Positions 45,556 through 64,000 of a stretch of DNA of 64,000 nucleotides are shown here, in pieces (position 1 is the first letter of the stretch; the number at the start of each line of letters is the position of its first letter). Source of the stretch: Gemmatimonadota bacterium. GTDB lineage: Bacteria > Gemmatimonadota > Gemmatimonadetes > Palauibacterales > Palauibacteraceae. The DNA lies in assembly GCA_046757885.1 (NCBI GenBank), contig JBHHZD010000002.1:37494-101493 (forward strand). Reading direction: 5' to 3'. Made by a program: the position numbers and the translations under genes. Under the pieces are notes generated by a model, which saw nothing but the letters and a program-made list of their open reading frames with translations, did no database searches and had not been told where the DNA came from.

Positions 45556-45571
45556 TCCGGAGGGCCCCGAC

Positions 45572-49600: not shown

Positions 49601-49862
49601 CACCCGGGCCGTGGCCGACGGGCGCATCACGATCCGCGGCGAGCGGGACACGGTCCAGGTGCCGACACCGCCGGAAGAGGTTCCGGGGGTGTACCGGTCC
49701 GTGGTCGTCGAACTGCCGCCGGACCGGTACACGGCCCTCGTGCTTTCCGGGCTTCCCGGAGCCGGGGCACGGCGGGTGGACCCGCGGACGGGCCTCGTGG
49801 AGCTGGACGGCGCCCGCATCCGGCTGCATTCCTGGGGGGTGTATGCGATCCCGAGGACCTGA
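46680..49862 (+). CDS. Large CotH-kinase-family-like protein with C-terminal right-handed beta-helix repeats; N-terminal TM anchor
   Basis: CotH-like block FLNDRFYGMFRWVEPVDESFLRRHG... YHMDNLHNQVWYEDP... HPIPWDVRLLDL. Later, parallel beta-helix-like repeats (NANGDAVDLDYATGRIERCRFEGSRNDAVDL; GSTRGIEVKDGS...). 1060 aa. Confidence 0.55.
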   Translation: MTSRTGARRRRRVRLRDVVLLSLPLDFLLGLLLAGSVLDYVRARQFDDWWSRGFSVPELFADRIWAAATLPRALSLERRTDPEGADPGIVRLRVTGEGWQGLTGDALARWSEWTDAVLLEPGDARAVELRKRGDTSVHWLTPKKSFTLKTSRTGLFKGYRRLAFSVKDVLPLYVSNRLAAEFGLLAPSTGVAPVFLNDRFYGMFRWVEPVDESFLRRHGRMPGNLWEGEVAERGENFKGLPRGLFHYPYIWERTAINDRPGADTTDALRGLIEDLQGGSFASHLALMGRLDREEIARFVAYLLAVGDPYHMDNLHNQVWYEDPSTGLLHPIPWDVRLLDLRDPPIWVNHFLQSVLRDPFVVDRALEILRDELADEALARKAEDLTRSAWDRYRSHFAYDRARRRIVPDVGTPAQVIGRLRTNLDVLRTWMEDSRVAVAVGAGVRPDGTTIVDLETRGYAGADLVGLDVAGGGSIRPRVVADRNGNGLPDAGDRTVDGAWTRAADTLRFVPVEPVALLPGWDTRERGIRPGAVHYRLFLVPPRRSGRLSAPAAVVPRLRNRIGASPTRIERWSDGDPPTPTRSFSPWSFPAPRGASRIWRGGVRVGHTLRVGRADTLIIEAGTTVVLDPEVSLVVRGHLEVRGAPDRPVRFQASDARHPWGALALQGPGAGGSVIRHARFSGGGGATIDRIEYTGMVNVHGADDVRLEHVELLDNLRSDDALHVLHARVFLSDCRFRNANGDAVDLDYATGRIERCRFEGSRNDAVDLMTSSPAIIASVMTGSGDKGISIGERSRPLLVADTITGSTRGIEVKDGSEPVALGGLVTGNGVGLLENVKNWRYGAGGRARLVGLAIRENAVDTARDQASRVTLPADSSRLADEETRRLLAIHGVADDPELAATAAAGRAVRLVAREAFVDDFAPIAGWRGTAGVRRLVRRSDDLVVTLDRRGGMAEREVDWDLTDTGRSYWIVLELTTRAVADGRITIRGERDTVQVPTPPEEVPGVYRSVVVELPPDRYTALVLSGLPGAGARRVDPRTGLVELDGARIRLHSWGVYAIPRT

Positions 49863-50955
49863 CGCGCGGCGCGCGATCGCGGGGGCGCTCCTCCTCGCGA
49901 CGCTCCCTCCCGGTCCGTACCGGCCGGTCCGGGCGCAGGAACCGGCGAGTCCGGCGGCGGACGAGTTCACGTTCGTGGTCCTCGGCCACGTGCGCGGGAA
50001 CGAGTCGGGCCCTCACTATCTTCTCGGCTCGCTCGTGGCGGAAGTGCGGGCCCTTCATCCGGACCTCGTCTTCCTGACCGGAGACATCATCTGGGGCGAC
50101 GTGCGGACGAATCCGGCCGATTCCGCCTCCGTCGAGCGCGAGTGGGACGTCGTCGATTCCGCCTTCGCGGCGATCGGGGCCCCCGTCTACCGCGTTCCCG
50201 GGAACCATGACATCAACGATCTCGTGACGCGGGACATCTACGCCCGCCGGTACGGCCTCCCGCCCGCCTTCGTGGACTACGGGGGCTACCGGTTCCTTCT
50301 CCTGAGCAGCAGCTGGATCCCGGCGGACGGAGATACCCGCAAGCGCCTGTTCATCCGGGGCAAGGACCTGGACGAGGCTCAGATCGCATTCCTGCGCCGG
50401 GCGCTCGCGCCGGACGAGGCCCGGCGGGGCGCCTTCGTCCTCATGCATCACCTCCTGTGGTGGGAGGAGGACGCGCCGTGGTGGCGGGATGTCCACCCCC
50501 TTCTGCGGGAGGGCGGAGTGCGGGCCGTGTTCGGCGGCGACTACGGTCCGATGAAGTTCTCGCACATGCGCCGTGACGGGATCGACTACTTCCAGAGCTC
50601 GATCGAGGGAGATGTCCGCATCCCGATCCTGCGCGCCCGCGAGGAGAGCCGACTCCTCTCGGCCCAGTTCGACAACTACCTCGTCGTCCGGGTCCGGGGG
50701 GCCGACGTGAGCGTGGACGTGCGCCCGTTCGCGGCCGTCGAATCCGGGCACTTCACCCCGCAGCGGTGGAGAGAGATCCACGCGGACGAACTCGCGGACG
50801 CGGGGGCGGCCGCCCGGCTGCGCCGGCGCCTGGCGTCGGTGTGGGGGACGATCAACAGCCCGAAGCGGCTGCTGGCTCTCGGGGTCGTGGTCGCCCTGAT
50901 CTTCGGCGCCGGATTCGCGGCCGCCTCGCTGTGGAGCCGGCGCCTGGGCCGATAG
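49843..50955 (+). CDS. Metallophosphoesterase (calcineurin-like) with signal peptide and C-terminal TM anchor
   Basis: FTFVVLGHVRGN..., LTGDIIWGD, VPGNHD metal-binding motifs; C-terminal helix LLALGVVVALIFGAGFAAASLW. Confidence 0.6.
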   Translation: MRSRGPDARRAIAGALLLATLPPGPYRPVRAQEPASPAADEFTFVVLGHVRGNESGPHYLLGSLVAEVRALHPDLVFLTGDIIWGDVRTNPADSASVEREWDVVDSAFAAIGAPVYRVPGNHDINDLVTRDIYARRYGLPPAFVDYGGYRFLLLSSSWIPADGDTRKRLFIRGKDLDEAQIAFLRRALAPDEARRGAFVLMHHLLWWEEDAPWWRDVHPLLREGGVRAVFGGDYGPMKFSHMRRDGIDYFQSSIEGDVRIPILRAREESRLLSAQFDNYLVVRVRGADVSVDVRPFAAVESGHFTPQRWREIHADELADAGAAARLRRRLASVWGTINSPKRLLALGVVVALIFGAGFAAASLWSRRLGR

Positions 50956-50964
50956 AGGCCGCCC

Positions 50965-52131
50965 TCACGCCTCGGGCGGCGCCGCGGACGCGCCGTCCTC
51001 GATCGGAAGGCCCTCGCCGTCGATGCGAATCGGGACGTGGTCGGCGGGATCCAGCGGACGCGGCCGCCTCCAGACCCTTCCCCCGACCATGGCGCGCGCC
51101 GCCCAGCCCGGATTGTAGGCGATGCTCGACCACAGGAAGACCTCGGTCGTGCAGTGGCATCGCCTCGCGGCCACGTGGGCCCGCAGCTCGTCGGTCCGGG
51201 GGGAGTTCCAGATCTCGGGGAAGGTCTGCTCGCGCAGGTTGCCGAGCGGCGTGTGCATCTCGCACAGCGACACGTCTCCGTTCGCGTACACCACGCCCGT
51301 GAGCCGACCCGCCCGGCAGGGAACGACCTGGCGGTTCTCCTTCATCGTCCTGACCTTCGCCCACTGGAGCATCGGCTCCACGGCCGCGCCGTAGCGACCC
51401 TCCTCGCGAGGGGCCCACAGACGGCGGATGTACGCGTACAGCTCCTCGTAGCGGTGCTGGAGGGGGGCCTCGAGCCCGGGATTCTTCCGGTCGCCCCGGA
51501 TCACGGCCAGGTTGTGGTGGTCCATCTTCGGACACCGCTCGTACAGGTAGGTCGTGAGGCGGCGGATCTCGTCCATGTTCACGTCGGTGGCGGTCGAGAT
51601 CGCGTGGATCCGGAGCCGGGCATCGCTCTCCTGAAGCGTCGCCAGCGCATCGTAGGACTCCATGGCGCGTCGGAACGAGTTCCGCGCGACCCGGAACGTG
51701 TCGTGAAACTCGGGCATGCCGTCCAGCGAGAGCTCGACGACGAACAGGTCGAGACCCGGTTCCTCCAGCGTCTCGCCCACCTGCTTCACGATGCGGTCCG
51801 GAAAGTACCCGTTCGTCGGCACGTAGATCTGGCCGACCCCGTTGTGGCGGATGAACTGGCGGCAGATCTCCGAGAACTCCTTGCGCAGGAACGGCTCGCC
51901 GCCCGAGAGGTTCAGGTTCTCGACCGGCCCGAGAGAGCGGGAGAGCTCGAAGATCTCGTCCTTCGTCAGGTCGTCCTTGCCGTTCAGGCTTCGCCAGTAG
52001 AAGCAGTGCTCGCACTTCATGTTGCAGAGCGAGTTGATGAACAGGATGAGGAAGGGCGGCGTCGGAGGCGTCTGATAGCCCTTCCGAAGGATCCGGAGCC
52101 TGCGGCGGGTGCTCTCCAGCCTGTTCGGCAT
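50965..52131 (-). CDS. Radical SAM enzyme with C-terminal Cys-rich (SPASM/twitch-like) auxiliary-cluster domain
   Basis: CNMKCEHC (CxxxCxxC) and the GGEP motif (LSGGEPFL); C-terminal Cys at VVPCRAG... SLCEMH... RRCHCT. I placed the start at the ATG at 52131, which has a GAGG Shine-Dalgarno 9 nt upstream; an alternative ATG lies at 52146. Confidence 0.7.
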
Positions 52132-52203
52132 GCGGCGAAACCTCATCCCCGCGCACGCGGGGGGACGTCGGGTGCTCCGATACCAGCCTACATCAACGTC
52201 GTA

Positions 52204-53700
52204 TCAACCTGCAACTGTCGTGCCGGGCGTGTCCCCGTCGGCCGATGCGGGCCAGCCGCGCCACAGGAGCCACAGGAGGACGCCCACGACGGCGAACACG
52301 GGGAGCGGGGAGGCCCCGTCCGCCAGGTACGGCGCGTAGGCGCCGGCCGTCTTCCGCAGGACGGTGAGCCAGGGAAGCTCGAACCCGCCGAGCAGCACGT
52401 GCGCGAGGGAGGTGGGCACGGATTCCCGCGCCATCGCGACGCTCCACGAGATGACGACGGTCGGCAGGACGACGAGGACCCTGAGAACCCCGGGCGTCCG
52501 AAGAAGGACGGGCACGAGCGCCAGGTACAGCAGGGGGACGGCCGGGACCAGGTAGCGCACACCCGTGTTGAACTGGAGCCGGGCGAACTGGATCGAGCTC
52601 GCGAACACGAGGAGCGCGCCCGTCGCCACGAGGGCGAAAGCCACCCCCGCCGGGCCGGGATCGCCGGGACGGCGCCGCAGCCACGGCGCCGCGACGGCCA
52701 GCGCGAGCATCGGACAGAACGCGAGGAGCCCGAACCGGGGATCCAGGAGATTCCGCCACAGGAGGTCGGGTGCCGGCGCCGTGATCCCGTGCCAGCCACG
52801 GACGCTGAACGGCGTCGCGGGCATGTAGCTCTGCGCGGGCAGCCACGGATTCCCGAACGCCCGCCACTGGTATCCGAACAGGAGGAGAAGGGGGCCCGCC
52901 GCTCCCAGCGCGAACCAGGCAGCCGAGCGCAGGGCCCGGCGCGGGCCGCCGGCCCGCCAGCCGTCGGCCATCGTCCACACGCCGAATGCTGCCGCGAGCG
53001 GCGCGGCGCTGTAGTCCGTCAGCAGGGCCAGGCCCAGGAGCGCCCCGACGCCCGCGAGCCTCCGCGGTCCCCGGGCACCCGCCCGCCTCTCCGGATCGAC
53101 GCCCAGCATCGCCACGAAGGCGAACAGCACGAGGTGCGCCACGATCGCATTCTGGTTCAGGAACGCGGACCGGAAGAAGATCGGCGTGCCGAAGGCGTAC
53201 AGAAGCGCCAGCCAGAGGGCACGCCTCTCCCCGACACGGGCGCGCAGGAACAGGAAGACGAGAACGGCCGCCAGGCCTCCGAGGGGCGCCATGAGCCCGA
53301 CCTGCATGCTCGCCGCCGCGAGCCCGAGCTTCACGTCCAGCCCCCGCGCTCGCGCCTCGTTGAAGAAGCGCGTCCGGTTGGGGCGCGGATCGTCGTAGGT
53401 GCCGGGCGGCTTCGGCCGCGCGAGCTCCGGCCGGGCCGCGAACAGGATCGCGACGAACGGCCGCGAGAGGGCGTACGGGACCGCGCCGAGCAGCGAGGCG
53501 CCCGGATTGTTGTTGACGTAGACGCCGCGCCCCGGGACGCGGAACAGGTCCGGGTGGAGGCCCTCGTAGGCGTCCACGCGCAGGGACGGCCCGTCACCGA
53601 GCGCCACGGCGAGATACGTCTCGCGCACGACGTTGGACGCGAAGTGCGCCCCGTACACGAGCCACACGGTCAGGAACAGGCGTCTCGCGGTTCCCGTCAC
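52204..53700 (-). CDS. Polytopic membrane protein, possible GT-C-fold glycosyltransferase
   Basis: GTG at 53700, directly after the upstream stop. About 12 TM helices with a periplasmic-type loop YVNNNPGASLLGAVPY. The ORF is open further upstream but overlaps the FAD-oxidoreductase gene. Confidence 0.5.
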   Translation of the reverse strand: MTGTARRLFLTVWLVYGAHFASNVVRETYLAVALGDGPSLRVDAYEGLHPDLFRVPGRGVYVNNNPGASLLGAVPYALSRPFVAILFAARPELARPKPPGTYDDPRPNRTRFFNEARARGLDVKLGLAAASMQVGLMAPLGGLAAVLVFLFLRARVGERRALWLALLYAFGTPIFFRSAFLNQNAIVAHLVLFAFVAMLGVDPERRAGARGPRRLAGVGALLGLALLTDYSAAPLAAAFGVWTMADGWRAGGPRRALRSAAWFALGAAGPLLLLFGYQWRAFGNPWLPAQSYMPATPFSVRGWHGITAPAPDLLWRNLLDPRFGLLAFCPMLALAVAAPWLRRRPGDPGPAGVAFALVATGALLVFASSIQFARLQFNTGVRYLVPAVPLLYLALVPVLLRTPGVLRVLVVLPTVVISWSVAMARESVPTSLAHVLLGGFELPWLTVLRKTAGAYAPYLADGASPLPVFAVVGVLLWLLWRGWPASADGDTPGTTVAG

Positions 53701-53702
53701 GC

Positions 53703-55124
53703 TCAGTCCTCCACCACGTGGGTGTCGAAGATCGCACGGCGTGCCGCCCACAGCGCCGGATCCACGCGGCCATCGCGCAGGCACTCGACCGCGCTGTAGG
53801 CCATGAACAGCGCGTGGTGCGTGTTGTCGTGTGCGAACAGCCCCTGCCGCCCGAAGGTGAGGAGGCCGGGGAGGTCCGTGGCCCACGCGTCGAGGCGCGC
53901 GAAGGAAGCCTCGTATCCCCTCCCGTAGATCGGGTAGGCGTGGCGGAGGCGCCGGACCGTGACGCCGATGGGTGGATCCGGCGGCCCGATCCCTGCCCGC
54001 TCCAGGTCCGCCATCACCCGGTCTCCGAGGGCCTCGTCCTCGAGGCTCCACACGTCGTCGTCCGGGGCGCACGGGAGCTCCGCGCACAGGGTCGTCCGGC
54101 CCCGCGGCTCGTCGAGATTCGCGTAGTTCTTCGTCTCGGAGAGCCGGGTGACCGTCACGTCGGGGCCCGGGAAATAGTGGGCGTCGTATTCCGTGAACCG
54201 GTCCACGGGGAGCGTCAGATAGACGAGGAGCATCGCCCGGTAGTCGATGCTCGCGGCCGCCTGCCGGACCTCCTCGGGGGGCTCCGGCCGGGTGATCCCC
54301 GCCAGGGCGGTGATCGGAATCGTGGACCACACGGCGTCGGCCTCGATCTCCCGCGGACCGCCCTCCCCCTCGGCGCGAACCCGCCACACGCCCCCGCCGT
54401 CGGGCCGCTCGAGCGCCGTGACCCGCTCGCCGAGCCGGATCTCCGCCCCCACCTGCCTCGCCGCCTCCGCATAGGCCTCGCAGATCGCCCCGAAGCCGCG
54501 CCTCGGATAGAAGAAATGGCTGAATCCCACGGCCGGGACGCCCGGAATCCGGCCCAGGACCTTGCGGGCGAGCTTGCCGGGGGAGTTCGCCGCGACGCGC
54601 CGGTGCGCCTGCGTGGCGGAGAGCTCCTCGGGCGCCCTGCCCCAGATCTTCCGCGCGTACGGGAAGTAGAAGCGCTCGCAGATCGTCGGCCCGAGGCGCG
54701 CCAGGAGCACCGAGGCGAAGGACTCCTCGGGTCCGCGTCCCTGACCCACCAGGCGCCCGACCGCGTCCCGCGCCGCCCCGAGGGCGAACGAGGGATCCAG
54801 CCGGAGGAGGAGGTCCAGGGGGCGGAGGGGAAACCGGATCCACCGCCCGTCGAGCCGGATCCGGCCGTGTCGGGGCCGCGTCAGCAGCTCCCCGCCCAGC
54901 AGCTCGCGGATGTCCGCCATGATCCCCGGCTCGCAGGCCGGGTGGAGCCGGTGGCTCCCGAAGTCCACTCGCTGGCCGGCCACGTCGAACGAGCCGGCGT
55001 TCCCGCCGACCACGGTCTTCTGCTCCAGGACCGTCACGGCCGCGCGGTTTCCGGTCCTCAGCCGGAAGGCCGCGCCCAGTCCGGCCGGCCCCGCGCCGAG
55101 GATGACGATGCGGGGCTCAGACAT
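53703..55124 (-). CDS. NAD(P)/FAD-dependent oxidoreductase (amine-oxidase/protoporphyrinogen-oxidase-like), paralog of 34181..35662
   Basis: RIVILGAGPAGLGAAFRL... VLEQKTVVGGNAGS dinucleotide-binding motif. 473 aa. Confidence 0.7.
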   Translation of the reverse strand: MSEPRIVILGAGPAGLGAAFRLRTGNRAAVTVLEQKTVVGGNAGSFDVAGQRVDFGSHRLHPACEPGIMADIRELLGGELLTRPRHGRIRLDGRWIRFPLRPLDLLLRLDPSFALGAARDAVGRLVGQGRGPEESFASVLLARLGPTICERFYFPYARKIWGRAPEELSATQAHRRVAANSPGKLARKVLGRIPGVPAVGFSHFFYPRRGFGAICEAYAEAARQVGAEIRLGERVTALERPDGGGVWRVRAEGEGGPREIEADAVWSTIPITALAGITRPEPPEEVRQAAASIDYRAMLLVYLTLPVDRFTEYDAHYFPGPDVTVTRLSETKNYANLDEPRGRTTLCAELPCAPDDDVWSLEDEALGDRVMADLERAGIGPPDPPIGVTVRRLRHAYPIYGRGYEASFARLDAWATDLPGLLTFGRQGLFAHDNTHHALFMAYSAVECLRDGRVDPALWAARRAIFDTHVVED

Positions 55125-56103
55125 AGCGGCGTCGGGCCCGACCGAGCGCCCGGAGGGACGTCGGCTCCCCGGCGCGATCAGCGGCTCCGCTCCACCGTCC
55201 GAGCGCGAGCCACAGCCCTCCCGCGATCAGGCCCCCGGCGATGAGAATCGACTGCCAGACGAGGGAAGCGACGACACCGGTGGCCATCGGCACGCCGAGC
55301 GGCACGAGGATCGCTCCGAGCGTCGCGTCCCGCACCCCGAGGCCTCCGAGGCTCACCGGGAGGAGTCCGGCGGCCTTGGCGAGCGGCCAGGCGAGGAACC
55401 AGGCCCCCAGCGGCACGTCGATCCCGAGAGAGCGGCCGATCCACGCGTTCAGGAGGACGAAGCCCGACTGCATGGTCAGCGAGATCGCGAGCGCGGCGAG
55501 CGCCGTGGACGGGCTCCGGGCGAGACGTCTTGCGCCGACGAGCGCCCGGCCGATCGGCCGGCGCAGGCGGGCGGGCCATCGGCGCAGCGGCCTGCGGGCC
55601 GCGAGGATCAGCGTGAGCGACGCCGCGGCGACGCCGGCCAGGAGGGCGAGGGTGACCGCGCTCGCTACCTTGGCCGGCAGGGCGCCCCTGGCGAGGATCC
55701 CGCCCGACGCGATGAGCAGGGCGAGGACGGCGACATCGACGAGCCGGTCCCCGATCCCCCCCAGCACGGCGGCCTCCGCCCGGCGGGTCTCTCGGGCCGC
55801 GAGCGCCGCCCTCAGGACGTCGCCGCCCACGATGCTCGGGAGGCAGAGATTCGCGAACAGGCCCGCGGCGTAGAAGCGGATCGCCTGCACCGGGGTGAGG
55901 AGGCAGCGGCCGGCGCGAAGGAGCATGCGCCACTTCGCGGCCCCGAGCCTGTGACCGGCCAGGAAGGCCGCCAGCGCCCCGAGCCACACCCAGGGCCGCA
56001 TCCGTCCGGCCGCGTCCCGCACGTCGCTCCAGGGCAGGAGGAGGACGAGGGCGGCCAGCACCGCGAGGGTCACGAGGACCCGGACGATCACGCGGACCCT
56101 CAT
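55117..56103 (-). CDS. Lysylphosphatidylglycerol-synthase TM-region-like (flippase-like) membrane protein, paralog of 22801..23775
   Basis: About 8 TM helices with the conserved LPSIVGGDVLRA motif (cf. LPSTIGGDTVRG in the paralog). Confidence 0.55.
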   Translation of the reverse strand: MRVRVIVRVLVTLAVLAALVLLLPWSDVRDAAGRMRPWVWLGALAAFLAGHRLGAAKWRMLLRAGRCLLTPVQAIRFYAAGLFANLCLPSIVGGDVLRAALAARETRRAEAAVLGGIGDRLVDVAVLALLIASGGILARGALPAKVASAVTLALLAGVAAASLTLILAARRPLRRWPARLRRPIGRALVGARRLARSPSTALAALAISLTMQSGFVLLNAWIGRSLGIDVPLGAWFLAWPLAKAAGLLPVSLGGLGVRDATLGAILVPLGVPMATGVVASLVWQSILIAGGLIAGGLWLALGRWSGAADRAGEPTSLRALGRARRRYV

Positions 56104-57017
56104 CGGTGCATCGCGATCCTGGCGTTCTGGTCCGCGAGCAGGCCCACGGCCCAGATGATGAGAGCCCCGAGGAACGCGAGGACCGCGCTCTCGGACAGGT
56201 TGTCCCGGGTCACGTCGTAGACGAACTTCGCCGCCCCGGCCACGGCCAGGACCCCTCCGATCGGGATGAACACCTTGAGGGGATTGAAGAACACGATCGT
56301 GCGCAGGATGAGCAGCGTGAACTCATACGCGTGCCACGGCCGGATCTTCGAGGCCCCCAGGCGGGCGTGGTAGTCGATGGGCACATACGCGACGGGGTGG
56401 CCGTTGCACGCGGCCGAGAGCGTGATCGTCGTCGTGAACGAGAAGCCGGACGGCAGGAGGTGCACGTAGCGCTCGATGAGATCGCGGCGCATGAGACGCA
56501 GGCCGGAATTCAGGTCGGGCAGCGCCTGCCCGGCCAGGTAGCTCGCGAGCCAGCGCAGGAAGCTCTTGGCCGGACGTCGGAGCAACGGGATCTTCACGGA
56601 CTCCCCCGTGCGGGCCCCCACAACCATGTCGTGGTCTGCGGCGCGCTCGAGGAGGGCGGGGATCGACTCGGCGGGATAGGTTCCGTCCGCGTCGGTGATG
56701 AGGATCCAGTCGTACCGGGCAGCCTCGATCCCCCGCTTCAGGGCGGCCCCGTACCCCAGGTTCCTTCGGTGGCGAAGGACGCGCACGCCCGCCGCGGCGG
56801 CGGCCTCTCCCGTTCCGTCGGACGAGCCGTCGTCCACGACGATGACCTCGTACCGCCACGGGCAACCGTCCAGCACGTTCCGGACCGCCTCGATCCCGGC
56901 CGCGACGTGCGTCGCCTCGTCGTACGCCGGGATCACGACGGAAACGGCTCGCTCGTATCGCGGACCCTCCGTCTCCGCCACGAGCTCCACATCCGGCTTC
57001 GCGACCTCTCTCTCCAT
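56100..57017 (-). CDS. GT2 DPM1-like polyprenyl-phosphate sugar transferase
   Basis: VSVVIPAYDE... VIVVDDGSSDGT... ITDADGTYP, with a C-terminal TM region. ATG at 57017; an alternative GTG at 57041 has a GTGA overlap with the upstream gene. Confidence 0.7.
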   Translation of the reverse strand: MEREVAKPDVELVAETEGPRYERAVSVVIPAYDEATHVAAGIEAVRNVLDGCPWRYEVIVVDDGSSDGTGEAAAAAGVRVLRHRRNLGYGAALKRGIEAARYDWILITDADGTYPAESIPALLERAADHDMVVGARTGESVKIPLLRRPAKSFLRWLASYLAGQALPDLNSGLRLMRRDLIERYVHLLPSGFSFTTTITLSAACNGHPVAYVPIDYHARLGASKIRPWHAYEFTLLILRTIVFFNPLKVFIPIGGVLAVAGAAKFVYDVTRDNLSESAVLAFLGALIIWAVGLLADQNARIAMHR

Positions 57018-57037
57018 GGGCTCCGCCTCGGTTCCGG

Positions 57038-58798
57038 TCACGTGCGCTCCTTCAGGAGTACGACGATCGAGCCCCCCCGGACAGTCCCCGGGAATTCCGC
57101 CGCCGGACGATACTCGCCCTCCAGACGCCTCCAGAGGTCGGGGTGGACGGCGGCGAGCCGTGTGGGGAACGTGTACAGGACCCACGTCCGGGCATGGGCT
57201 GCCTCGAGACGATCGAGGTCGGCGGCGTCCCGAATCGACGCCCAGCCCGCGCGCAGGTAGGCCCGGTAGGGCAGATCGGTCATGTCGACGGTGGCGACCG
57301 CGTCTTCGGGCCTGCGCCTGGCCTCCACCCAGGCCCGGGCTCCGTCGTAGTCCTGCTTCGGCCGCCAGGCCCCGGGAAGCGCGGGGAGGCTCGCGGCGAT
57401 CAGGGCCACGCCCGCCCACGTGACGATCGTCGCCCGGCGGCGGTCGCCGGCTCGGCCCGGGACCAGGGCGCCGAGGACGAACAGGCCCCGCATCACGATG
57501 AGCGCCGCGGCGCCCGCCGAGAAGAAGAAGAAGCGGGGCCACAGATTGTGGCCCGTCGCCAGGATGGCGGCCGCCGTCGCGACCGCCGGGAGGACGAGGA
57601 CCGCCGTCACGGCGCGTCCGCGGCGCCAGAATCCGGCCAGTCCGGCCGCGCCGACGATCCCCGCGGCGGCCAGGCCCACGAGCCCTCCCGGAAGCGCCGC
57701 CGCGAGGCCGCGCGCCGTCTCCGCCAGGAGCCAGGCCGGATTCTGCCAGACCACGTTCACGTCCGCCATCGTGGGCTCGGTCAGCGTCCCGACGAGCTGA
57801 GGCAGCACGAGGGCGTACAGCTGAAGCGACAGCGTGGCGGCGAGACCCAGGCCGACGCCGGTGCGGACGAAGGCACGACGGGCCGGCGGATCCGCCCCCC
57901 GCCCGGCCGCCGTTCCGAGCCAGATGAGGCCGTGCGCGAGCACGACGAGCACGGCCGTGAGGTGCGTGTAGACCGCGAGGGCCATCGTGACGGCGTACCC
58001 GACCGCCGGTCCCCAGCCGCTCGGCTCACGCGCCTCCAGCAGGCGAACGAACAGCCCGGAGCCGACGAGGGTGAAGAACAGCAGGCCGGTGTATCCGCGG
58101 GCGTTCTGGGAGAACCACACGTGGTGGTACGAGAACGTGAGGAACGCGGCTGCGAGTAGCGCCTCGCGCCGTCCGGCCACGATCCGGCCGAACCACCAGA
58201 CCGCCCAGATGCTCGCCACCCCGAACGCGGCGGCCGGCAGGCGCAGCGAGGACGCCCCCTCCCCCAGCGCCGAGACCGAGCCCCGGGCGAGAAGCGAGAA
58301 CAGGACGTGCTGGTTCTGGCTGTCCAGGGTGGAGATCAGGCGTCCGAGCGGAAGCCGCACGTGTTGCGCGAGGGTCGCGATCTCGTCGAACCACAACCCG
58401 TCCCCGAGGTCGTGGAGTCGGAGGGCCGCCGCGGCCACGAGCAGCGCCGCGACCAGCAGTCGCTCGGCCACGTGGCCGACCTCCGGCACGGCTACGGGGC
58501 GGCGGAGTCGAGGGCCTTCCTCTCCGAGCTGCACCCGGCCCAGCACGGCGAGGATCCCGGCGTGCACGAGAAGGAGGGCCTTGAACAGCCACAGCCCCGT
58601 GACGAGGTTGGGTGGGGCCCCCGGATCCGACCCGGCGAGGAGGTCCGCCGTTCCCCGGACGGGGAGCAGGAGCGCGAGCGCCGCGACGGCGACCGCCGCG
58701 TACGATGTCCTTCGGGTCACGCGGGATTCCCTCGTCTCTCCGGCCTTCGCGCGGCCGGGTTGCTCTCTGGAACAACGATCGGAGTGACGGGAGGTCAT
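57038..58798 (-). CDS. GT-C fold membrane glycosyltransferase (PMT_2/ArnT-like)
   Basis: ATG at 58798. First loop LHDLGDGLWFDEIATL (DE motif), at least 11 TM helices, C-terminal soluble domain. Confidence 0.6.
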   Translation of the reverse strand: MTSRHSDRCSREQPGRAKAGETRESRVTRRTSYAAVAVAALALLLPVRGTADLLAGSDPGAPPNLVTGLWLFKALLLVHAGILAVLGRVQLGEEGPRLRRPVAVPEVGHVAERLLVAALLVAAAALRLHDLGDGLWFDEIATLAQHVRLPLGRLISTLDSQNQHVLFSLLARGSVSALGEGASSLRLPAAAFGVASIWAVWWFGRIVAGRREALLAAAFLTFSYHHVWFSQNARGYTGLLFFTLVGSGLFVRLLEAREPSGWGPAVGYAVTMALAVYTHLTAVLVVLAHGLIWLGTAAGRGADPPARRAFVRTGVGLGLAATLSLQLYALVLPQLVGTLTEPTMADVNVVWQNPAWLLAETARGLAAALPGGLVGLAAAGIVGAAGLAGFWRRGRAVTAVLVLPAVATAAAILATGHNLWPRFFFFSAGAAALIVMRGLFVLGALVPGRAGDRRRATIVTWAGVALIAASLPALPGAWRPKQDYDGARAWVEARRRPEDAVATVDMTDLPYRAYLRAGWASIRDAADLDRLEAAHARTWVLYTFPTRLAAVHPDLWRRLEGEYRPAAEFPGTVRGGSIVVLLKERT

Positions 58799-58911
58799 CA
58801 GGCAATGTCCGTTCCAGAACTCTCCGCCGGGCGGGGCGCCCTTCGATGGCGCGGAATCCGGGTGACGCCGGGCGGGCGAGCCGTCTGGAGGGCCCGCGCG
58901 CCGGGGCCGCG

Positions 58912-58925
58912 GGCCCACGTGTTGC
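58912..58925 (+). promoter_or_regulatory. Sigma-54-like -24/-12 element GGGCCCacgtgTTGCG
   Basis: GG (58912-13) and GC (58924-25) 12 nt apart, about 56 nt upstream of the GTG at 58981. Confidence 0.35.
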
Positions 58926-58980
58926 GTCCGCGCCACAAGGTGCGCACCCGGCGCTCGAGCCGGCAACACGCGGCCCGCTC

Positions 58981-60870
58981 GTGAGCACCCTCGTCGGACT
59001 GCTCGCGGGCAGCGTGTCCATCCTCCTGACGTGGATCGCGATCGGAGCGCTCCTGGCCGGGATCGGCGTTCCGGTGCTCGCCCGCTTCGGCGCGCGCAGA
59101 CCCGGGGTCGAAGGATGGCTGGACGGGGCCTGGATGGGCCTCGTGATCGTCGTCCTCGTCCTCCAGGTCTGGCACACTTTCCTCCCGATCGGTGCGATCC
59201 CGACGCTCGCGCTGGGCCTCGCGGGCGTCATCGGGCTCGCGGGGCACGCCCGGGGCCTCGGAGCGTCGCTGCGCCGCGGGTGGAGCGACCGGGGACGGCG
59301 CTGGGCGGGCGTGGCCTTCCTCATCGCGGCTCTCTGGGCGGCGAACCAGCTGACGGGCCCGCCCACGCAGTATGACACGGGGATGTACCACGCGCCCATG
59401 GTCCGCTGGATCCGCAGCTTCCCGCTCGTGCCCGGCCTGGGCAACCTGCACGGACGGCTCGCCTTCAACAACGCGAACCTGCTGTTCGCCGCCCTCATCG
59501 ACGGAACGGTGTGGCGCGGTGGGGCCACGCACGTCGTGAACGGCGTGCTCATCTTCCTGCTCCTCGCGCAGGTCTCCGCCGCCCTGGCGGGGCTGGTCTC
59601 CGCTCGGGCCGGTGGGCCCAGGGGACGCCTCGTGTTCGACGGGCTCCTGCTGGCCCCGGTGCTCGCGAAGGTCATCCACGAAGATGCCCGCAGTCATTCG
59701 CCTGATCTCGCGGTCGCCGTCGTCCTGCTGGCCGCCGCCTCCCGCCTCTACGCCCTGCTCGTGGAGCGCGACGGGCGGTCGCGAGGAGGCGAGGTGGCCC
59801 TCGTCGTCGCCCTGTTCGCGCTCGCGGTGTGCTTCAAGCTGAGCGCCGCCGCCTTCGCGGGGATCGGGACCGTGATCGCGCTCTCCCTGGGTTCCGCCCC
59901 CGGGAGAGACGGGCCGGGGCGGCTTCGCTTCGCGGCGTCCACTCTCGTCCTGCCGGCGCTCCTGGTCGGGCCGTGGCTCGCGCGGGGCGCCGTGCTGAGC
60001 GGCTATCCCCTGTATCCGATCCGGGCGGTCGCCGTGGCCGCCGACTGGCGGGTGCCCGGTGAGCAGGCCGACGCGGAGCTGGCGTACATCCGGCACAGCG
60101 CCCGGTGGGTGGACAACGAGCCGGGAGAGGGATGGGACTGGGTGGGCCCCTGGCTGCGAACGATGACGAACCCCTACCGCCGGGTCCGCATCCTGCTTCC
60201 GCTCGTTCTCGCGGCGGCGGGTTCGCTCCTGTGGCTCCTCCGGGCGGGGGCCGGTCGCGGCGCCGCCCGGCCGCCGACGGGCGGGCTCCTGCTGGTGCCC
60301 ACCGCGGCGGGTATGGCGTTCTGGTTCGTGACGGCGCCGCATCCGCGGTTCGGCTACTTCCTGTTCTGGGTGGCCGCGGCCACCGTCGTCGCCGAGCTCG
60401 TCGGGCGAGCTCCCCGGACGGTCCCCCGGCCCGGGCGCCGGATCGCCCTGGCGCTCCTGTTCCTGGGGAGCCTCCCGCTTCTGGACGACCCGCTCATGCA
60501 ATTCGTCCGGCACGGCAGGAACCCCGCGAGGACGCTCGTGGACCGGATGATCCGGGCGCCCGGGCCGGACCGGGGCCTGCACCCGATGCCGGAGGCGGAG
60601 CTCACGACCTTCCGCACGGAGTCCGGCCTCCGTCTCTGGACGCCCGTCTCCAGCAATCACTGCTGGGACACGCCGGCGCTGCCGTGCACGCCGCATCCCG
60701 CCCGCAACCTGGAGCTGCGACGCGCCGGCGACCTGCGGCACGGGTTCAGGATCGACGGATCCTGGCGTCCCGAGAGCTGGCCGAACCGGCACTCGGCCTT
60801 TCTCGAAGAATGGCGTCAGGGACGGAGCCGCTCGACGACGACGCCCTCCTCGGACTCGCCGACCCGGTAG
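58981..60870 (+). CDS. Polytopic membrane protein with central and C-terminal soluble domains (GT-C / polymerase-like, unknown family)
   Basis: GTG at 58981. About 10 TM helices in two blocks separated by a soluble region. 629 aa. Confidence 0.45.
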   Translation: MSTLVGLLAGSVSILLTWIAIGALLAGIGVPVLARFGARRPGVEGWLDGAWMGLVIVVLVLQVWHTFLPIGAIPTLALGLAGVIGLAGHARGLGASLRRGWSDRGRRWAGVAFLIAALWAANQLTGPPTQYDTGMYHAPMVRWIRSFPLVPGLGNLHGRLAFNNANLLFAALIDGTVWRGGATHVVNGVLIFLLLAQVSAALAGLVSARAGGPRGRLVFDGLLLAPVLAKVIHEDARSHSPDLAVAVVLLAAASRLYALLVERDGRSRGGEVALVVALFALAVCFKLSAAAFAGIGTVIALSLGSAPGRDGPGRLRFAASTLVLPALLVGPWLARGAVLSGYPLYPIRAVAVAADWRVPGEQADAELAYIRHSARWVDNEPGEGWDWVGPWLRTMTNPYRRVRILLPLVLAAAGSLLWLLRAGAGRGAARPPTGGLLLVPTAAGMAFWFVTAPHPRFGYFLFWVAAATVVAELVGRAPRTVPRPGRRIALALLFLGSLPLLDDPLMQFVRHGRNPARTLVDRMIRAPGPDRGLHPMPEAELTTFRTESGLRLWTPVSSNHCWDTPALPCTPHPARNLELRRAGDLRHGFRIDGSWRPESWPNRHSAFLEEWRQGRSRSTTTPSSDSPTR

Positions 60871-62594
60871 GCCGACCGCTCCGGAAAAGCCGCCATCAGC
60901 ACGGCGTTCCTCTCTCCGAGATCCCTGGCGAAGATCACGTCTCCCGTCCCGATCGGAAGCGAGTTCAGCGGGAAGGCGGACTTCCATGACCAGTTCCCGG
61001 GCTCGACGAAGACGAGCGCGTCGTGGATCCCCCGCTCCCGCACGGCATCCCGCACCCAGCCCGACGCCCCCCGGTACCGGTGGCCGTACTCACGCAGAAG
61101 GGGCGGATAGGCGATGAGCGCCGACGTGAGGACGAGCGCCGCGAGTGCGGAGCGGCCCATCGCCCGCTCGGCGTCCGGCCGGCCGTCCATGAGGCGGGAG
61201 ATGGGACCGGAGAGAGCGAGAACGGCGGCCGGCAGAGCCAGGTAGTAGTGGCGCGAGCCGTACGCGATCCCGTGGTAGAAGTGAAAGACGTACACGCCGA
61301 CGAGCGCGAGGGCCGACGCGGCCACGAGTCGCTTCCAGCGCGACCGTTCGCGCGGCAGACGGGCCAGGCCGAGCGCCAGCGCCGCGAGCATCACGAGGGG
61401 AACCCCGTGCACGTCGCGCAGGAACTGGATGAATCGGTGAGCCGTGACCTTCACCGCATCCAGCGGATAGAAGCCGGGCCACTCGCTGCCGTGAATCGAG
61501 GTGCCCATGTCGGCCCCGAATCCGAGGCCGAACCGCTCGGCTGGATTCCGGAGCTGGAAGTACTTCGTCACCGGAAACAGCAACGGATCGCCCGTCAGGC
61601 GCTGATTGTAGACGAGCGTGAGCGCGATGCCCGCGACCGCGAACAGCCCCACGACGACGAGGGGGACCGCGTACTTCCGGTCGCGGATCGCGCGGTAGGC
61701 CAGGTGCAGTCCGAGCGGGGCCGCGACGGCCGCCGCGTCCACGGGCCGGATGAGCATCCCGGCCACGAGTGCCAGGCCCGCTCCGATGGACGCCGCCGCG
61801 CCCGCGCCGTCCAGCACGCGAGCCCAGAAGAGCAGGAGGAGGACGAACGCCAGCAACGAGGCGGCGTGCGACATGTACGACGCGGAGAGGAAGAGCGCGA
61901 ACGGCGAGATGGCCAGCAGCACGACGGCGACCCGGCCATCCGTCTCGCCGAATCCGGCACGCCGGAGAAATGCGTGGAGCGCCAGCAGGGTCAGGCCGCC
62001 CAGCACGGGGTTCACGAGCCAGGGGGCTCCGACGAGGTACCCGATCGCCAGGATCGCGGGCCAGCCGGGATTCATGATCCCATACCAGCGCGTCCCGTCC
62101 AGGAGGGTGTGCGTGAAGCCGAAGAACTCCGGATGGTCGGGCGCCGCGATGGACAGCGACCCTCCGGCCATCGCCTTCGCCTGGAGCTGGTAGGCCACCG
62201 CGTCGCTGATGTGGGGGACGCCGTCGAGCACGAGCCATCCGGCCGCGACGGCCGCCGCGACGAACAGGGCGGCGAGCAGCATCACCGGCATCCGCACCAG
62301 GCCGCGGCAGATCCCGTCGGCCACCCGCCGGAACCGGAGGAGCAGCAGGTAGAGCGATGCGAACGCCACGGCGCTCGCGCCGAGGTCGAGCGCGTAGTCC
62401 GTCGCGTCGACGTACCGGTACGCCGCCACCGGCAGGAGCACCGCCACGAGACCGACCGCGGCCAGGAGTCGGCGGCGCCCTCGCAGGAGCGCGACCGTCC
62501 GACGCGCGCCGTCGTCCCGGTCCCGGCGCCAGAGCGAGGCGGCCGCGAGAAGGGCCAGGACCAGCGCCGCGGTCGGCACCCAGCCGGGCCTCAC
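60816..62594 (-). CDS. GT-C fold membrane glycosyltransferase (ArnT/PMT-like)
   Basis: Periplasmic-loop motif ISDAVAYQLQAKAM (D-x-x-Y type), about 13 TM helices, and a C-terminal soluble domain of about 90 aa. Confidence 0.6.
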   Translation of the reverse strand: MRPGWVPTAALVLALLAAASLWRRDRDDGARRTVALLRGRRRLLAAVGLVAVLLPVAAYRYVDATDYALDLGASAVAFASLYLLLLRFRRVADGICRGLVRMPVMLLAALFVAAAVAAGWLVLDGVPHISDAVAYQLQAKAMAGGSLSIAAPDHPEFFGFTHTLLDGTRWYGIMNPGWPAILAIGYLVGAPWLVNPVLGGLTLLALHAFLRRAGFGETDGRVAVVLLAISPFALFLSASYMSHAASLLAFVLLLLFWARVLDGAGAAASIGAGLALVAGMLIRPVDAAAVAAPLGLHLAYRAIRDRKYAVPLVVVGLFAVAGIALTLVYNQRLTGDPLLFPVTKYFQLRNPAERFGLGFGADMGTSIHGSEWPGFYPLDAVKVTAHRFIQFLRDVHGVPLVMLAALALGLARLPRERSRWKRLVAASALALVGVYVFHFYHGIAYGSRHYYLALPAAVLALSGPISRLMDGRPDAERAMGRSALAALVLTSALIAYPPLLREYGHRYRGASGWVRDAVRERGIHDALVFVEPGNWSWKSAFPLNSLPIGTGDVIFARDLGERNAVLMAAFPERSAYRVGESEEGVVVERLRP

Positions 62595-64000
62595 GGGATG
62601 GTCTCCGGGGCTTCCAGGGCGGCCTCCGTCTCCATGTGGAAGCGATGGGCGGAGCCCCCGTGGAGAACCATGTCACCGAGCAGCGGAAGGTCCCTCGCCC
62701 ACGCCACGGCGACGAACCCGAGCGACGCCGCGAGGAGCACCCGCCGGGAGACCGGCCGACCTGACCACCCGAGCCGCAGCCTGGCCCGCGGACTCGCCAG
62801 CAGCCACGCGGCCGGAAGGGCCAGCACGGCGTGCAGCGGCACCGCGTAGCGCGAGAGCGCGTACGTGAGCCCGAACAGGACGGTGGAGTGCGCCGCGAGC
62901 AGGAGCGCGAGGCCTCGCAGGCCGGAGCGGGGCATGCCGGCGAGGCCCGCGAAGCCCGCGACGACGAGCCCGACCCAGAATCCCGCGCTAGCGAGCGTGA
63001 TCAGCGCCACGCCCCAGCCCGGCGGAGACCGCCGCGTCCAGCCGTTCCGGAGGTGTCGCAGGGCGAACGAGTCGAGCGTCCACAGGTGGCCCGCTTCCCA
63101 GAGCGTCTTTCGCACGAAGAGCCCGGGAGCGTGCCGGATGTTCGCGAGGGCCGCGTCCACGGCGGCCCTCTGGGCCCCCTTCGCGTCCTCGAGGACCCGA
63201 TCCTTGTACGCCACCCCATCCACCCGCCCGTACCGGGCACTCCAGAAGTCATCCTTGTCCACGAACGCCGCCGCCGGCTGGGTGCCGACGAGGAAGTTGA
63301 ACGGCCCGTTGCTGTCCACGAGCACGAACCCGCCCGTGACCCGGGCGTTCCGCGCCGTCCACGGCAGGACGACGGCCGCGCAGGCGACGGCGAGCAGGAC
63401 GAAGCGACCGGGCCAGCCCGAGTCGCGCGTGTCCTTGCGCGCCTGCCACCAGGCCCACGGAAGCAGAAGAGGGGCGAACGTGAGGATCATAGGGCGCGTG
63501 AGGCCGGCGAGGCCCAGCGAGAGCCCGGCCGCGGCCCACGCGAGCCCGCGGCGGCGCGGGCGCGCCGTCAGCAGGTCCAGGACGGCGAGCAGGAAGAAGA
63601 GGAAGACCGTCTCCGACCAGAGACGGTGCGTGAAGCTCACGAGGACGGGATCGAAGGCGAAGATCAGGGCCGCGATCCGCCCCGTGCGGGGGGCGTCGAG
63701 CCGGGCCCCGATCCGATAGATGAAGACGGTCGAGACCGTGCTCAGAATCGCCTGCCCGGCCCACACCCCGGCCGTCCCGAGGCCGGCCGCGAGCATGGCG
63801 GCGAGAAACGCCGGGTACAGCGGCGGCCGGAACGTGTCCAAATACGGTCGTCCCTCCGCGAGCCCCCGGGCCAGCGCCAGGTAGGCGCGCTCGTCGAGGA
63901 CGGCCGCGGCGCCGTGCTCGATCGCCGCCAGGACCAGCTTCAGGACGAGCGAGCCGCCGAGGATGAGCCACAGGGCCCGGTCCCGGTGCCACGGACCCGG
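62591..64000 (-). CDS. GT-C fold membrane glycosyltransferase (ArnT/PMT-like), N-terminus beyond the window end
   Basis: The reading frame stays open past the TTG at 63841 to the window edge. The upstream translation reads ...ALWLILGGSLVLKLVLAAIEHGAAAVLDERAYLALARGLAEGRPYLDTFRPPLYPAFLAAM (DE-x-x-Y loop then RPPLYP), typical of GT83/GT39 N-termini. Confidence 0.55.
   Translation of the reverse strand, partial: PGPWHRDRALWLILGGSLVLKLVLAAIEHGAAAVLDERAYLALARGLAEGRPYLDTFRPPLYPAFLAAMLAAGLGTAGVWAGQAILSTVSTVFIYRIGARLDAPRTGRIAALIFAFDPVLVSFTHRLWSETVFLFFLLAVLDLLTARPRRRGLAWAAAGLSLGLAGLTRPMILTFAPLLLPWAWWQARKDTRDSGWPGRFVLLAVACAAVVLPWTARNARVTGGFVLVDSNGPFNFLVGTQPAAAFVDKDDFWSARYGRVDGVAYKDRVLEDAKGAQRAAVDAALANIRHAPGLFVRKTLWEAGHLWTLDSFALRHLRNGWTRRSPPGWGVALITLASAGFWVGLVVAGFAGLAGMPRSGLRGLALLLAAHSTVLFGLTYALSRYAVPLHAVLALPAAWLLASPRARLRLGWSGRPVSRRVLLAASLGFVAVAWARDLPLLGDMVLHGGSAHRFHMETEAALEAPETIP

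Follow-up and report, generated by a model that had tools for sequence, protein, structure and literature searches.

We analyzed a 64,000-nucleotide stretch of DNA, referred to here as the window, from an uncultured Gemmatimonadota bacterium with a metagenome-assembled genome (contig JBHHZD010000002.1, positions 37,494 to 101,493), and identified six membrane proteins of the GT-C glycosyltransferase type in it. On balance, we favor the reading that several three-component systems for extracytoplasmic glycosylation adjoin one another in this locus, which use lipid-linked sugar donors and have a surface polysaccharide as their likeliest acceptor. The strands of the open reading frames (ORFs) were checked by third-position GC frame analysis, and nearly all genes were scanned against Pfam and NCBIfam. 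The window has a G+C content of approximately 71%, and the third-position analysis yielded a clean map of approximately 50 genes that supports the gene calls and strands given in a preliminary description of this DNA. The family scans characterize the whole window as a single long glycan-biosynthesis region. Its right third differs in kind from its left, consisting mostly of enzymes that act on lipid-linked donors at the outward-facing side of the membrane. The six GT-C candidates, C1 to C6, are predicted from their sequences to transfer sugars from lipid-phosphate-linked donors:

32080..33735, plus strand: C1, divergent PMT_2-like GT-C glycosyltransferase with a C-terminal soluble domain (family profile comparison)
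52204..53700, minus strand: C2, ArnT-like GT-C glycosyltransferase (AlphaFold2 [AF2] model and Foldseek)
57038..58798, minus strand: C3, PMT_2-type GT-C glycosyltransferase (Pfam PMT_2)
58981..60870, plus strand: C4, DUF8201/LIC_10190-family membrane protein with a predicted GT-C fold and a C-terminal beta-rich domain (AF2 and Foldseek)
60816..62594, minus strand: C5, GT-C glycosyltransferase of a large family (family profile comparison)
62591..>64000, minus strand: C6, PMT_2-type GT-C glycosyltransferase, truncated by the window end (Pfam PMT_2)

The preliminary description had proposed six polytopic GT-C-type membrane proteins, and each was confirmed by one of three routes: the PMT_2 family (C3 and C6), the predicted fold (C2 and C4), or profile comparison (C1 and C5). 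All six contain approximately 9 to 13 hydrophobic segments by hydropathy, and BLASTP showed them to be only distantly related to one another. A census of the window using hidden Markov models and searches built from all six families returned exactly six GT-C-type ORFs. C1 (551 aa), C2 (498 aa), C4 (629 aa), and C5 (592 aa) are exact NCBI or Logan gene calls, and reading the contig past the window end (locus L016) gave a full length of 481 aa for C6. C3 and C6 exceeded the Pfam gathering score for PMT_2 (PF13231; 26.1 bits), with 30.9 and 44.5 bits, respectively.

Fold prediction was needed because sequence searches of solved structures were not significant for C3, C6, C1, and C4. AF2 models were made for C2 and C4 and compared with the PDB using Foldseek. 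The C2 model (pLDDT 89.7, pTM 0.92) is an all-helical membrane bundle whose best 34 PDB matches are GT-C enzymes without exception (34/34), with ArnT (5f15) at the top (E = 2.4e-4, TM-score 0.51/0.47). The C4 model (pLDDT 93.4, pTM 0.95) is also an all-helical membrane bundle, and 10 of its 11 top matches are named GT-C enzymes (probability 0.97 to 1.0). Pmt4 ranked first among these, and EmbA/B/C, ArnT, ALG3, AftB, and PglB were also recovered; transporters matched with a probability below 0.15. The model places C4 as a GT-C fold far from every solved family. C4 scored 187.5 bits against NF047510 (cutoff of 100; PF26626), and no paper on the LIC_10190/DUF8201 family was found in the literature searched. 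The result named in the preliminary description as contrary to its proposal, transporters or polymerases that lack the GT-C catalytic loop, was not found, as judged by model for C2 and C4 and by sequence or profile for the other four.

C1 has no Pfam or NCBIfam match of its own, and its 21 detectable homologues include some annotated as GT39 or PMT_2. When compared using hhalign, the C1 family profile matched C6 (97%, E = 9.5e-11), with DDAHY aligned to DERAY and PPGYP aligned to PPLYP. The C5 family, which contains 4,232 cluster representatives, matched both the C1 family (98.5%, E = 2.3e-15) and the C2 family (97.5%, E = 5.5e-12). C2 is highly conserved across Gemmatimonadota, with 577 homologues and 58 to 84% identity among the 120 listed.

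The proposed acidic motif of the first loop is conserved in the C1, C2, C4, and C5 families, and acidic residues are present in C3 and C6 as well. Within the C1 family, D50 and Y54 (QDDAxY), a YPPGYP motif, and S152/E153 are invariant. The C2 family has invariant R26, Y29, D43, H49, P50, and D51, and E27 is at least 90% conserved. D132 of the C4 family is invariant and lies within YDxGxYH, while P127, H128, and D131 of the C5 family (PHVxDxxAY) are nearly invariant, D131 being at least 90% conserved, and a PPGWP motif is also present; C4 D132 aligns with C5 D131 in an otherwise marginal profile match. C3 carries a WFDEIA motif, with DE as the acidic pair, behind a transmembrane (TM) helix, and C6 contains DERAY.

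Enzymes that could make the lipid-linked donors are encoded by four genes, one of them degenerate:

19103..20089, minus strand: degenerate polyprenyl-phosphate GT2 paralogue with two C-terminal TM helices (NCBIfam ArnC model, alignment)
20065..20997, minus strand: ArnC-like polyprenyl-phosphate glycosyltransferase (GT2), predicted lipid-P-sugar donor synthase (Pfam, PDB)
56100..57017, minus strand: DPMS/AglJ/ArnC-like polyprenyl-phosphate glycosyltransferase (GT2), predicted lipid-P-sugar donor synthase (Pfam, PDB)
41427..42515, plus strand: UbiA-family polyprenyl-phosphate phosphoribosyltransferase (PPPRS), DPPRS/PPPRS type (NCBIfam, PDB)

Three GT2 genes had been described as DPM1-like, and this holds for the two that keep the DDGS and DxD motifs, 20065..20997 (VDDGS and DGD; Pfam GT2, 120.9 bits) and 56100..57017 (VDDGS and DAD; 105.9 bits), each of which has two C-terminal TM helices. 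The former matches solved ArnC over its full length (9bhc, 177 bits, E = 5e-51), followed by GtrB and DPMS. Its score against the ArnC equivalog model (179.9 bits) is under the cutoff of 529, and it is therefore not an ArnC orthologue. The latter matches solved ArnC, DPMS, and GtrB with E values of 3e-16 to 5e-11, and its NCBIfam matches all fall under their cutoffs (AglJ, 101.7 bits with a cutoff of 325; Dol-P-hexose transferase, 99.8 bits; PpgS, 85.5 bits). Neither gene reached the equivalog cutoffs for ArnC, AglJ, PpgS, or PgfS. The description does not extend to 19103..20089, in which the alignment places VTEPW where VDDGS is expected and TLPAY where DGD or DAD is expected. This gene scored 88.7 bits against the NCBIfam ArnC model (residues 18 to 311) and 25 bits against Pfam GT2. 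Because both catalytic Asp motifs are lost, its product is probably non-catalytic; the gene overlaps 20065..20997 by 25 nt, and its product may be a non-catalytic partner or subunit of that enzyme.

The UbiA-family protein exceeded the equivalog cutoffs of NF008977 (255.2 bits, cutoff of 234) and NF008978 (223.8 bits, cutoff of 207) and matched solved DPPRS (8j8j) with an E value of 1.8e-33 over residues 72 to 355 (284 residues). The ORF encodes 362 aa, its homologous part begins near 41640, and it has no fused phosphoribose phosphatase domain. These matches predict a synthase of a lipid-P-ribofuranose-5-P donor, which would be the fourth lipid-sugar donor route. Enzymes of the DPPRS/PPPRS type catalyze the first step toward lipid-P-pentofuranose donors, both for mycobacterial arabinan and in the three-component pentofuranose systems reported in 2024 (PMC11127046). 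Between the upstream GT2 gene and UbiA lie two tandem paralogous ORFs (40943..41329 and 41353..41634, plus strand; 129 and 94 aa; 34% identical, E = 4e-13) with two TM segments each; the second runs, in a different frame, into the annotated 5' end of UbiA. Neither ORF matches a Pfam family or recurs in the other loci compared; the two could be a small flippase-like pair, or they may not be genes at all.

Candidates for moving the donors across the membrane, and the flavoenzymes encoded near the GT-C and GT2 genes, are as follows:

22801..23775, plus strand: stand-alone MprF-type flippase-like membrane protein, candidate polyprenyl-P-sugar flippase (Pfam LPG_synthase_TM)
55117..56103, minus strand: stand-alone MprF-type flippase-like membrane protein (Pfam LPG_synthase_TM)
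42523..43914, plus strand: MOP-superfamily (Wzx-like) flippase, 463 aa (Pfam Polysacc_synt)
21120..22808, plus strand: GlpD-like FAD oxidoreductase (Pfam DAO and DAO_C)
33854..35662, plus strand: UDP-galactopyranose-mutase (UGM)-like flavoenzyme of the PRK07208 family, directly after C1 (NCBIfam, PDB)
53703..55124, minus strand: divergent UGM-like flavoenzyme of the PRK07208 group (PDB, paralogue match)

Two GT2 regions had been reported to be paired with flippase-like proteins, and both pairings stand. The proteins encoded at 22801..23775 (324 aa, approximately seven TM segments) and 55117..56103 (328 aa) scored 145.2 and 109.9 bits against LPG_synthase_TM, which has a gathering score of 33.4 bits. 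Against the flippase-like model TIGR00374 (cutoff of 43.2), the former scored 71.6 bits and the latter 33.1 bits, under the cutoff. Neither contains another domain, and the MprF equivalog model gave at most 27 bits with a cutoff of 600. Each gene adjoins a gene for an FAD enzyme, the GlpD-like 21120..22808 in one case and the UGM-like 53703..55124 in the other.

The third flippase candidate, 42523..43914, begins 7 nt downstream of UbiA and matches Polysacc_synt (99.4 bits) and Polysacc_synt_3 (60.1 bits). It had been taken for the Wzx of a Wzx/Wzy pathway. We consider it either a donor flippase or a flippase of exopolysaccharide (EPS) repeat units; the published pentofuranose system has a 4-TM flippase. 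For this reason, we ruled out that it is the equivalent of the published pentofuranose flippase. At the window start, which truncates the gene, 3..617 (plus strand) encodes the 204 C-terminal residues of a polytopic membrane protein with approximately five TM helices and no family match. This may be another MOP-type flippase, and in that case it would matter for the role of the one beside UbiA.

The GlpD-like gene 21120..22808, directly upstream of the flippase-like 22801..23775 and divergent from the ArnC-like GT2 20065..20997, scored 122.9 bits for DAO and 68.5 bits for DAO_C; NCBIfam glycerol-3-P dehydrogenase models gave approximately 162 bits, under their cutoffs. The gene following C1, 33854..35662, scored 696.9 bits against NF005548 (cutoff of 389) and aligned nearly full-length with Trypanosoma cruzi UGM (4dsg; E = 5.8e-18, residues 121 to 561 against 11 to 448), including the GGH loop, YP, and the GR.G...Y.NQDHS motif. 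Because homology to UGM-like proteins begins only at residue ~119, its true start is probably near 34208. With that start, a gap of approximately 470 nt (33736..34207), which shows another third-position GC phase, would lie behind C1. The best PDB matches of 53703..55124 are also UGMs (E = 1.2e-9, residues 6 to 222), and its last motif reads GRQGLFAHDNTHHA. The two proteins are 30% identical (E = 8e-53), and both scored under the TIGR00031 cutoff. The presence of UGM-like flavoenzymes beside C1 and C2 would point to furanose donors. Carotenoid glycosylation (CruG, CrtI/CrtD-like) was rejected as an explanation, since the flavoenzymes match PRK07208/UGM models far better than CrtI/CrtD. A hopanoid Hpn-type cluster (HpnB, HpnL, HpnJ-like) was also rejected, as there were weak sub-threshold matches only and no squalene/hopene genes.

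Operons were inferred where reading frames overlap or nearly abut. The best-defined unit of the locus is a six-gene minus-strand operon (50965..58798) that encodes, in order, C3, GT2, the flippase-like protein, the UGM-like flavoenzyme, C2, and a radical SAM (rSAM) protein. Along it, C3 and GT2 are separated by 20 nt, GT2 overlaps the flippase-like gene by 4 nt, the flippase-like gene overlaps the UGM-like gene by 8 nt, and gaps of 2 and 57 nt precede C2 and rSAM, respectively. A 4-nt overlap also links C6 to C5, and these two genes form a second operon that converges on C4, which is itself transcribed divergently from the C3-to-rSAM operon. The 3' ends of C4 (plus strand) and C5 (minus strand) overlap by 55 nt (60816..60870), which leaves no room for a terminator between them. 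The last gene of the six-gene operon is:

50965..52146, minus strand: radical SAM/SPASM enzyme (Pfam)

It scored 53.8 bits for Radical_SAM and 41.7 bits for SPASM, and all of its NCBIfam matches are far under their cutoffs. No rSAM gene is found beside the C2 homologues in loci L001, L017, and L018.

The gene order GT2, flippase-like, UGM-like is kept in nine loci from Gemmatimonadota, Acidobacteriota, and Pseudomonadota (Albidovulum; Alphaproteobacteria), and a C2-, C3-, or C5-type GT-C gene lies near this trio in six of the nine. Orthologues of 53703..55124 are strongly conserved, including their motifs, and follow GT2, usually with a flippase-like gene between, in loci of all three phyla. 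The flippase-like gene directly follows GT2, as 55117..56103 does here, in L001, L003 to L007, L015, and L018. The Albidovulum loci L004 and L006 have C3-type homologues close to the trio, a C5 orthologue is directly upstream of GT2 in L017, and a deacetylase gene follows the trio in the proteobacterial loci. A UbiA gene recurs beside the module in L001 and L017; in L017, UbiA and Polysacc_synt genes adjoin a C2 homologue and are no more than approximately 3 kb apart, on either side of a sulfatase-like gene. The preliminary description considered the arrangement atypically complex. The window is indeed the densest copy among the loci compared, but the arrangement is typical of the lineage: L018 has four GT-C genes in 21.6 kb, and L001, L017, L019, and L020 have two each. 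The UbiA donor route, the two UGM-like genes, the cross-phylum recurrence of the core, and a sulfatase-superfamily array had all been overlooked.

This array consists of five tandem paralogues upstream of C6 on the same strand (L016:1-8562, directly past window position 64000). Their products are 38 to 47% identical, 616 to 674 aa long where complete, and membrane-anchored, with two to seven N-terminal TM helices and a sulfatase/alkaline-phosphatase-superfamily domain. They carry T-L-P/V-S-H where sulfatases have C/S-x-P-x-R and give partial EptA/CptA matches, a combination that we take to fit Thr-nucleophile transferases such as EptA or LtaS; their scores are better against arylsulfatase and choline-sulfatase models than against those of EptA. 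DUF8201 adjoins tandem sulfatase-like genes in three genomes, the present one and those of two other Gemmatimonadaceae (L019 and L020; three or four genes). We rejected the rSAM enzyme as a maturase of its sulfatase-like neighbors on account of the motif that they carry, and no sulfatase-maturase model was among its best 25 NCBIfam matches. Two observations were made near DUF8201 genes elsewhere. In L020, 667-2343 encodes a 558-aa fusion of LPG_synthase_TM and SAM-methyltransferase domains, near DUF8201 and four sulfatase-like genes. In L021 (Vicinamibacteria), 1-1417 carries an FAD_binding_4 gene and, behind it, one for a short-chain dehydrogenase, a DprE1/DprE2 family pair, approximately 7 kb upstream of DUF8201.

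Besides sulfotransferases, a polysaccharide lyase, and enzymes of the GT4 and GT2 families, the left third of the window encodes a Wzy_C protein and two multi-TM GT2 proteins that resemble EpsU. Two markers of XrtA/PEP-CTERM EPS loci scored above their equivalog cutoffs, a FemAB-family protein (TIGR03019, 297.8 bits) and a deacetylase (TIGR03006, 345.5 bits). These equivalogs and two sulfotransferases are encoded at 17200..19106 (minus strand), 1780..2769 (plus strand), and 16209..17285 (minus strand), and together they suggest a sulfated exosortase-type EPS.

From what the genes encode, their folds, and the conservation of motifs and gene order, we infer lipid-linked donors, their flipping, furanose chemistry, and an extracytoplasmic acceptor, and propose the following mechanism. 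At the cytoplasmic face, the two ArnC/DPMS/GtrB-type GT2 enzymes would load sugar from nucleotide sugars onto polyprenyl phosphate, and the UbiA-type phosphoribosyltransferase would load ribofuranose-5-P from phosphoribosyl pyrophosphate (PRPP). A probable role of the two UGM-like flavoenzymes is to provide the sugars in furanose form or to convert such forms, a suggestion that draws, like the furanose role of the PPPRS, on homology and gene order. The stand-alone MprF-type proteins, and possibly the MOP flippase beside UbiA, would move the lipid-P-sugars to the outer leaflet, where the six GT-C enzymes would transfer the sugars to acceptors at the periplasmic face, each with its own donor, acceptor, or linkage. 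The most likely acceptor would be a cell-surface polysaccharide, for example, the one made by the XrtA/PEP-CTERM-type EPS genes of the window. The extensive periplasmic-face glycosylation envisaged in the preliminary description is in line with this scheme, as the identities of the GT-C, GT2, and flippase-like genes would imply it.

Several observations weigh against this proposal or weaken parts of it. Four of the six candidates did not pass PMT_2, with C2 at 23.5 bits, C5 at 20.7 bits, and no Pfam match for C1 or C4. No significant match came from the solved-structure searches with C3, C6, and the profiles of C1 and C4, in which Pmt1 ranked best at E = 0.51, and the Foldseek scores of the C4 matches are weak (E = 1.8e-3 to 0.05, TM-score 0.3 to 0.46). 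The periplasmic position of the conserved Asp and Glu residues is deduced from topology. Decoration enzymes are usually far less conserved than C2, for which a core role in the envelope is a better fit than variable decoration of EPS. Solved MprF gave no sequence match to the flippase-like protein. Finally, the 463-aa MOP protein is unlike the small 4-TM flippase of the published pentofuranose system.

We weighed four other explanations against this proposal. One, which we regard as unlikely, is that the GT-C enzymes themselves build a periplasmic furanose polymer, comparable to the arabinan that Emb/Aft enzymes of Corynebacterineae make from decaprenyl-P-arabinose, and that this polymer is a conserved core envelope component of Gemmatimonadota. 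The DPPRS-type UbiA, the Emb and Aft enzymes among the fold matches of C4 and C2, the unusual conservation of C2 (58 to 84% identity among 120 listed of the 577 homologues), and the recurrence in Gemmatimonadota of a core of C2, GT2, and the UGM-like gene, often with UbiA, are all consistent with it, as is the fact that a polymer with several linkages would need several different GT-C enzymes in one locus. However, we found no DprE1/DprE2-type epimerase (an FAD_binding_4 and short-chain dehydrogenase pair) in the window and identified no primer or ligation genes, and the fold matches do not prefer Emb/Aft over ArnT or PMT. We know of no furanose polymer from Gemmatimonadota, although our search was not exhaustive. 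A locus of the Arn/Ept type, in which an amino sugar and phospho-substituents on lipid A or the lipopolysaccharide core tune outer-membrane charge, seems to us quite unlikely. ArnT is the best solved match of C2, 20065..20997 matches ArnC full-length, a DegT-family aminotransferase gene (15000..16205) and polysaccharide deacetylase genes are nearby, and the C6-C5 operon includes five sulfatase-superfamily genes with partial EptA/CptA matches. Yet that GT2 is far under the ArnC equivalog cutoff (180 vs 529 bits), no ArnA-like formyltransferase/decarboxylase and no ArnE/F were found, the deacetylase and FemAB genes beside the GT2 are XrtA-system equivalogs, the sulfatase-like genes are nearer to arylsulfatase/choline-sulfatase models than to EptA, and six GT-C enzymes with a PRPP-derived donor far exceed what lipid A modification needs.

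We think it very unlikely that the PMT_2-type enzymes glycosylate proteins, such as PEP-CTERM proteins or lipoproteins, from a polyprenyl-P-hexose donor in the manner of O-mannosylation by PMT. PMT_2 is the sole Pfam family matched and Pmt4 the top fold match of C4, XrtA/PEP-CTERM genes are present, the Wzy_C protein weakly matches a model for exosortase-associated O-glycosylation ligases, and the actinobacterial Ppm1/Pmt pair glycosylates proteins from polyprenyl-P-hexose. Against these points, family scans identified no exosortase or PEP-CTERM substrate gene in the window, the MIR domains of true PMTs are missing from the candidates (none was reported in their Pfam scan), and the neighbors are mostly polysaccharide enzymes (GT4, GT2, epimerases, sulfotransferases, and a lyase). 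That functionally unrelated genes are merely co-located in a variable glycan island is highly improbable. C1 has only 21 detectable homologues, rSAM is not conserved beside C2, and the number and type of GT-C genes vary among related loci, but the overlapping or near-abutting frames indicate operons, three phyla share the order GT2, flippase-like, UGM-like, and DUF8201 adjoins tandem sulfatase-like genes in three genomes.

Glycosylation systems of the kind that we propose are already known: Gtr, CsbB/GtcA/YfhO, Arn, mycobacterial arabinan, and the pentofuranose systems of 2024, and the trio was predicted in archaea in 2015. Gtr-type and CsbB/GtcA/YfhO-type systems combine a GtrB-like GT2, a small flippase, and a GT-C enzyme to add side chains to O antigen, teichoic acid, or rhamnan. 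The present locus resembles them in having GT2 enzymes with two C-terminal TM helices that are related to GtrB, ArnC, and DPMS, and in having candidate flippase and GT-C genes in the same operon. It differs in that the flippase candidate is an MprF-type LPG_synthase_TM protein rather than a 4-TM GtrA/GtcA protein, a UGM-like flavoenzyme is encoded within the operon, and two GT-C genes flank the module, with four more nearby. In the Citrobacter youngae O1/O2 pentofuranose system, a PPPRS works with a small 4-TM EmrE/ArnE-like flippase and a GT136 GT-C enzyme (Kelly et al. 2024, PMC11127046). Here too, a UbiA-family PPPRS is encoded in a glycan locus with GT-C enzymes, but the 362-aa UbiA protein has no fused phosphoribose phosphatase domain, and the 463-aa protein encoded next to it is MOP/Wzx-like, whereas the published flippase is a 4-TM EmrE/ArnE-like protein.

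The mycobacterial arabinan pathway comprises the DPPRS Rv3806c, DprE1/E2, and the Emb/Aft GT-C enzymes, and PpgS/Rv3779 forms a galactosamine system. The DPPRS homologue, several GT-C enzymes that presumably use lipid-P-sugar donors, and the partial match of 56100..57017 to the PpgS model (85.5 bits) are points of similarity. In contrast, the window has no DprE1/E2 pair, its GT-C enzymes are similar to Emb/Aft at the level of fold only and are not their orthologues, and the host is a diderm. The Arn pathway (ArnC, ArnD, ArnE/F, ArnT) shares with this locus an ArnC-like GT2, the ArnT-like fold of C2, and deacetylase-family genes; the score under the ArnC equivalog cutoff, the lack of ArnA and ArnE/F, and the EPS-locus context set the two apart. 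In archaea, an AglD-like GT2, an MprF-like flippase (arCOG00899), and a PMT/STT3-like protein (arCOG00563) were predicted to form a glycosylation system (Makarova et al. 2015, PMC5898192). Members of these three families are encoded side by side here as well; C2 and C3 weakly match the Agl23 model and the GT2 matches the AglJ model. Unlike the archaeal neighborhood, the present locus is bacterial and multi-copy, with an added UGM-like flavoenzyme and radical SAM gene.

What is unusual here is the multiplicity, the embedded UGM-like flavoenzyme, the DPPRS-type route in Gemmatimonadota, and the link to a sulfatase-superfamily array. Three-component glycosylation is familiar from pathogens, in which one GT-C enzyme adds one sugar from one donor. 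In this little-studied soil and sediment phylum, the same logic would be scaled up to three or four donor routes and six GT-C enzymes, which represent five or more distant families, with a linked array of phospho-transferase-like enzymes. On the evidence of the C4 model, DUF8201/LIC_10190 may be treated as a GT-C family. The tie between UGM-like, polyprenyl-P GT2, and MprF-like proteins in three phyla suggests lipid-linked furanose donors beyond pentoses, and MprF-type domains may be general polyprenyl-P-sugar flippases. If the C2 operon is a core envelope pathway, it would provide new insight into the Gemmatimonadota cell surface. A more specific idea, which we offer as speculative and rather doubtful, is that the module of GT2, MprF-like, UGM-like, and GT-C proteins is a hexofuranose counterpart of the pentofuranose systems. 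It would make a polyprenyl-P-hexofuranose donor, such as one of galactofuranose (Galf), for use outside the cytoplasm; this donor and the PRPP-derived one would feed a conserved Gemmatimonadota envelope glycan; and several GT-C families, including DUF8201, would build or decorate this glycan, with Thr-nucleophile sulfatase-superfamily arrays modifying it. The literature searched contained no paper on a polyprenyl-P-galactofuranose (lipid-linked Galf) donor, on PRK07208, or on GT-C enzymes in Gemmatimonadota.

Three further features of the gene map lie outside these systems. The ORF at 39945..40946 (plus strand), which begins with ATG, was rejected as a gene, since it is in the wrong frame, has an Arg/Pro-rich translation, and matches no family; third-position GC phase and family matches identify a GT2 at approximately 39850..40953 (plus strand) as the true gene in its place. 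Between the UbiA/MOP flippase pair and the C3-to-rSAM operon lies a plus-strand operon (44098..50955) encoding a VTC domain protein, a DUF4956/MgtC-like membrane protein, a TPR protein, a 1,060-aa protein with CotH-kinase and beta-helix domains, and a metallophosphoesterase with a C-terminal TM helix. In the left part of the window, 8790..10976 (plus strand) encodes a 728-aa fusion of a GFO/IDH/MocA oxidoreductase domain and an NAD-dependent epimerase/dehydratase domain.

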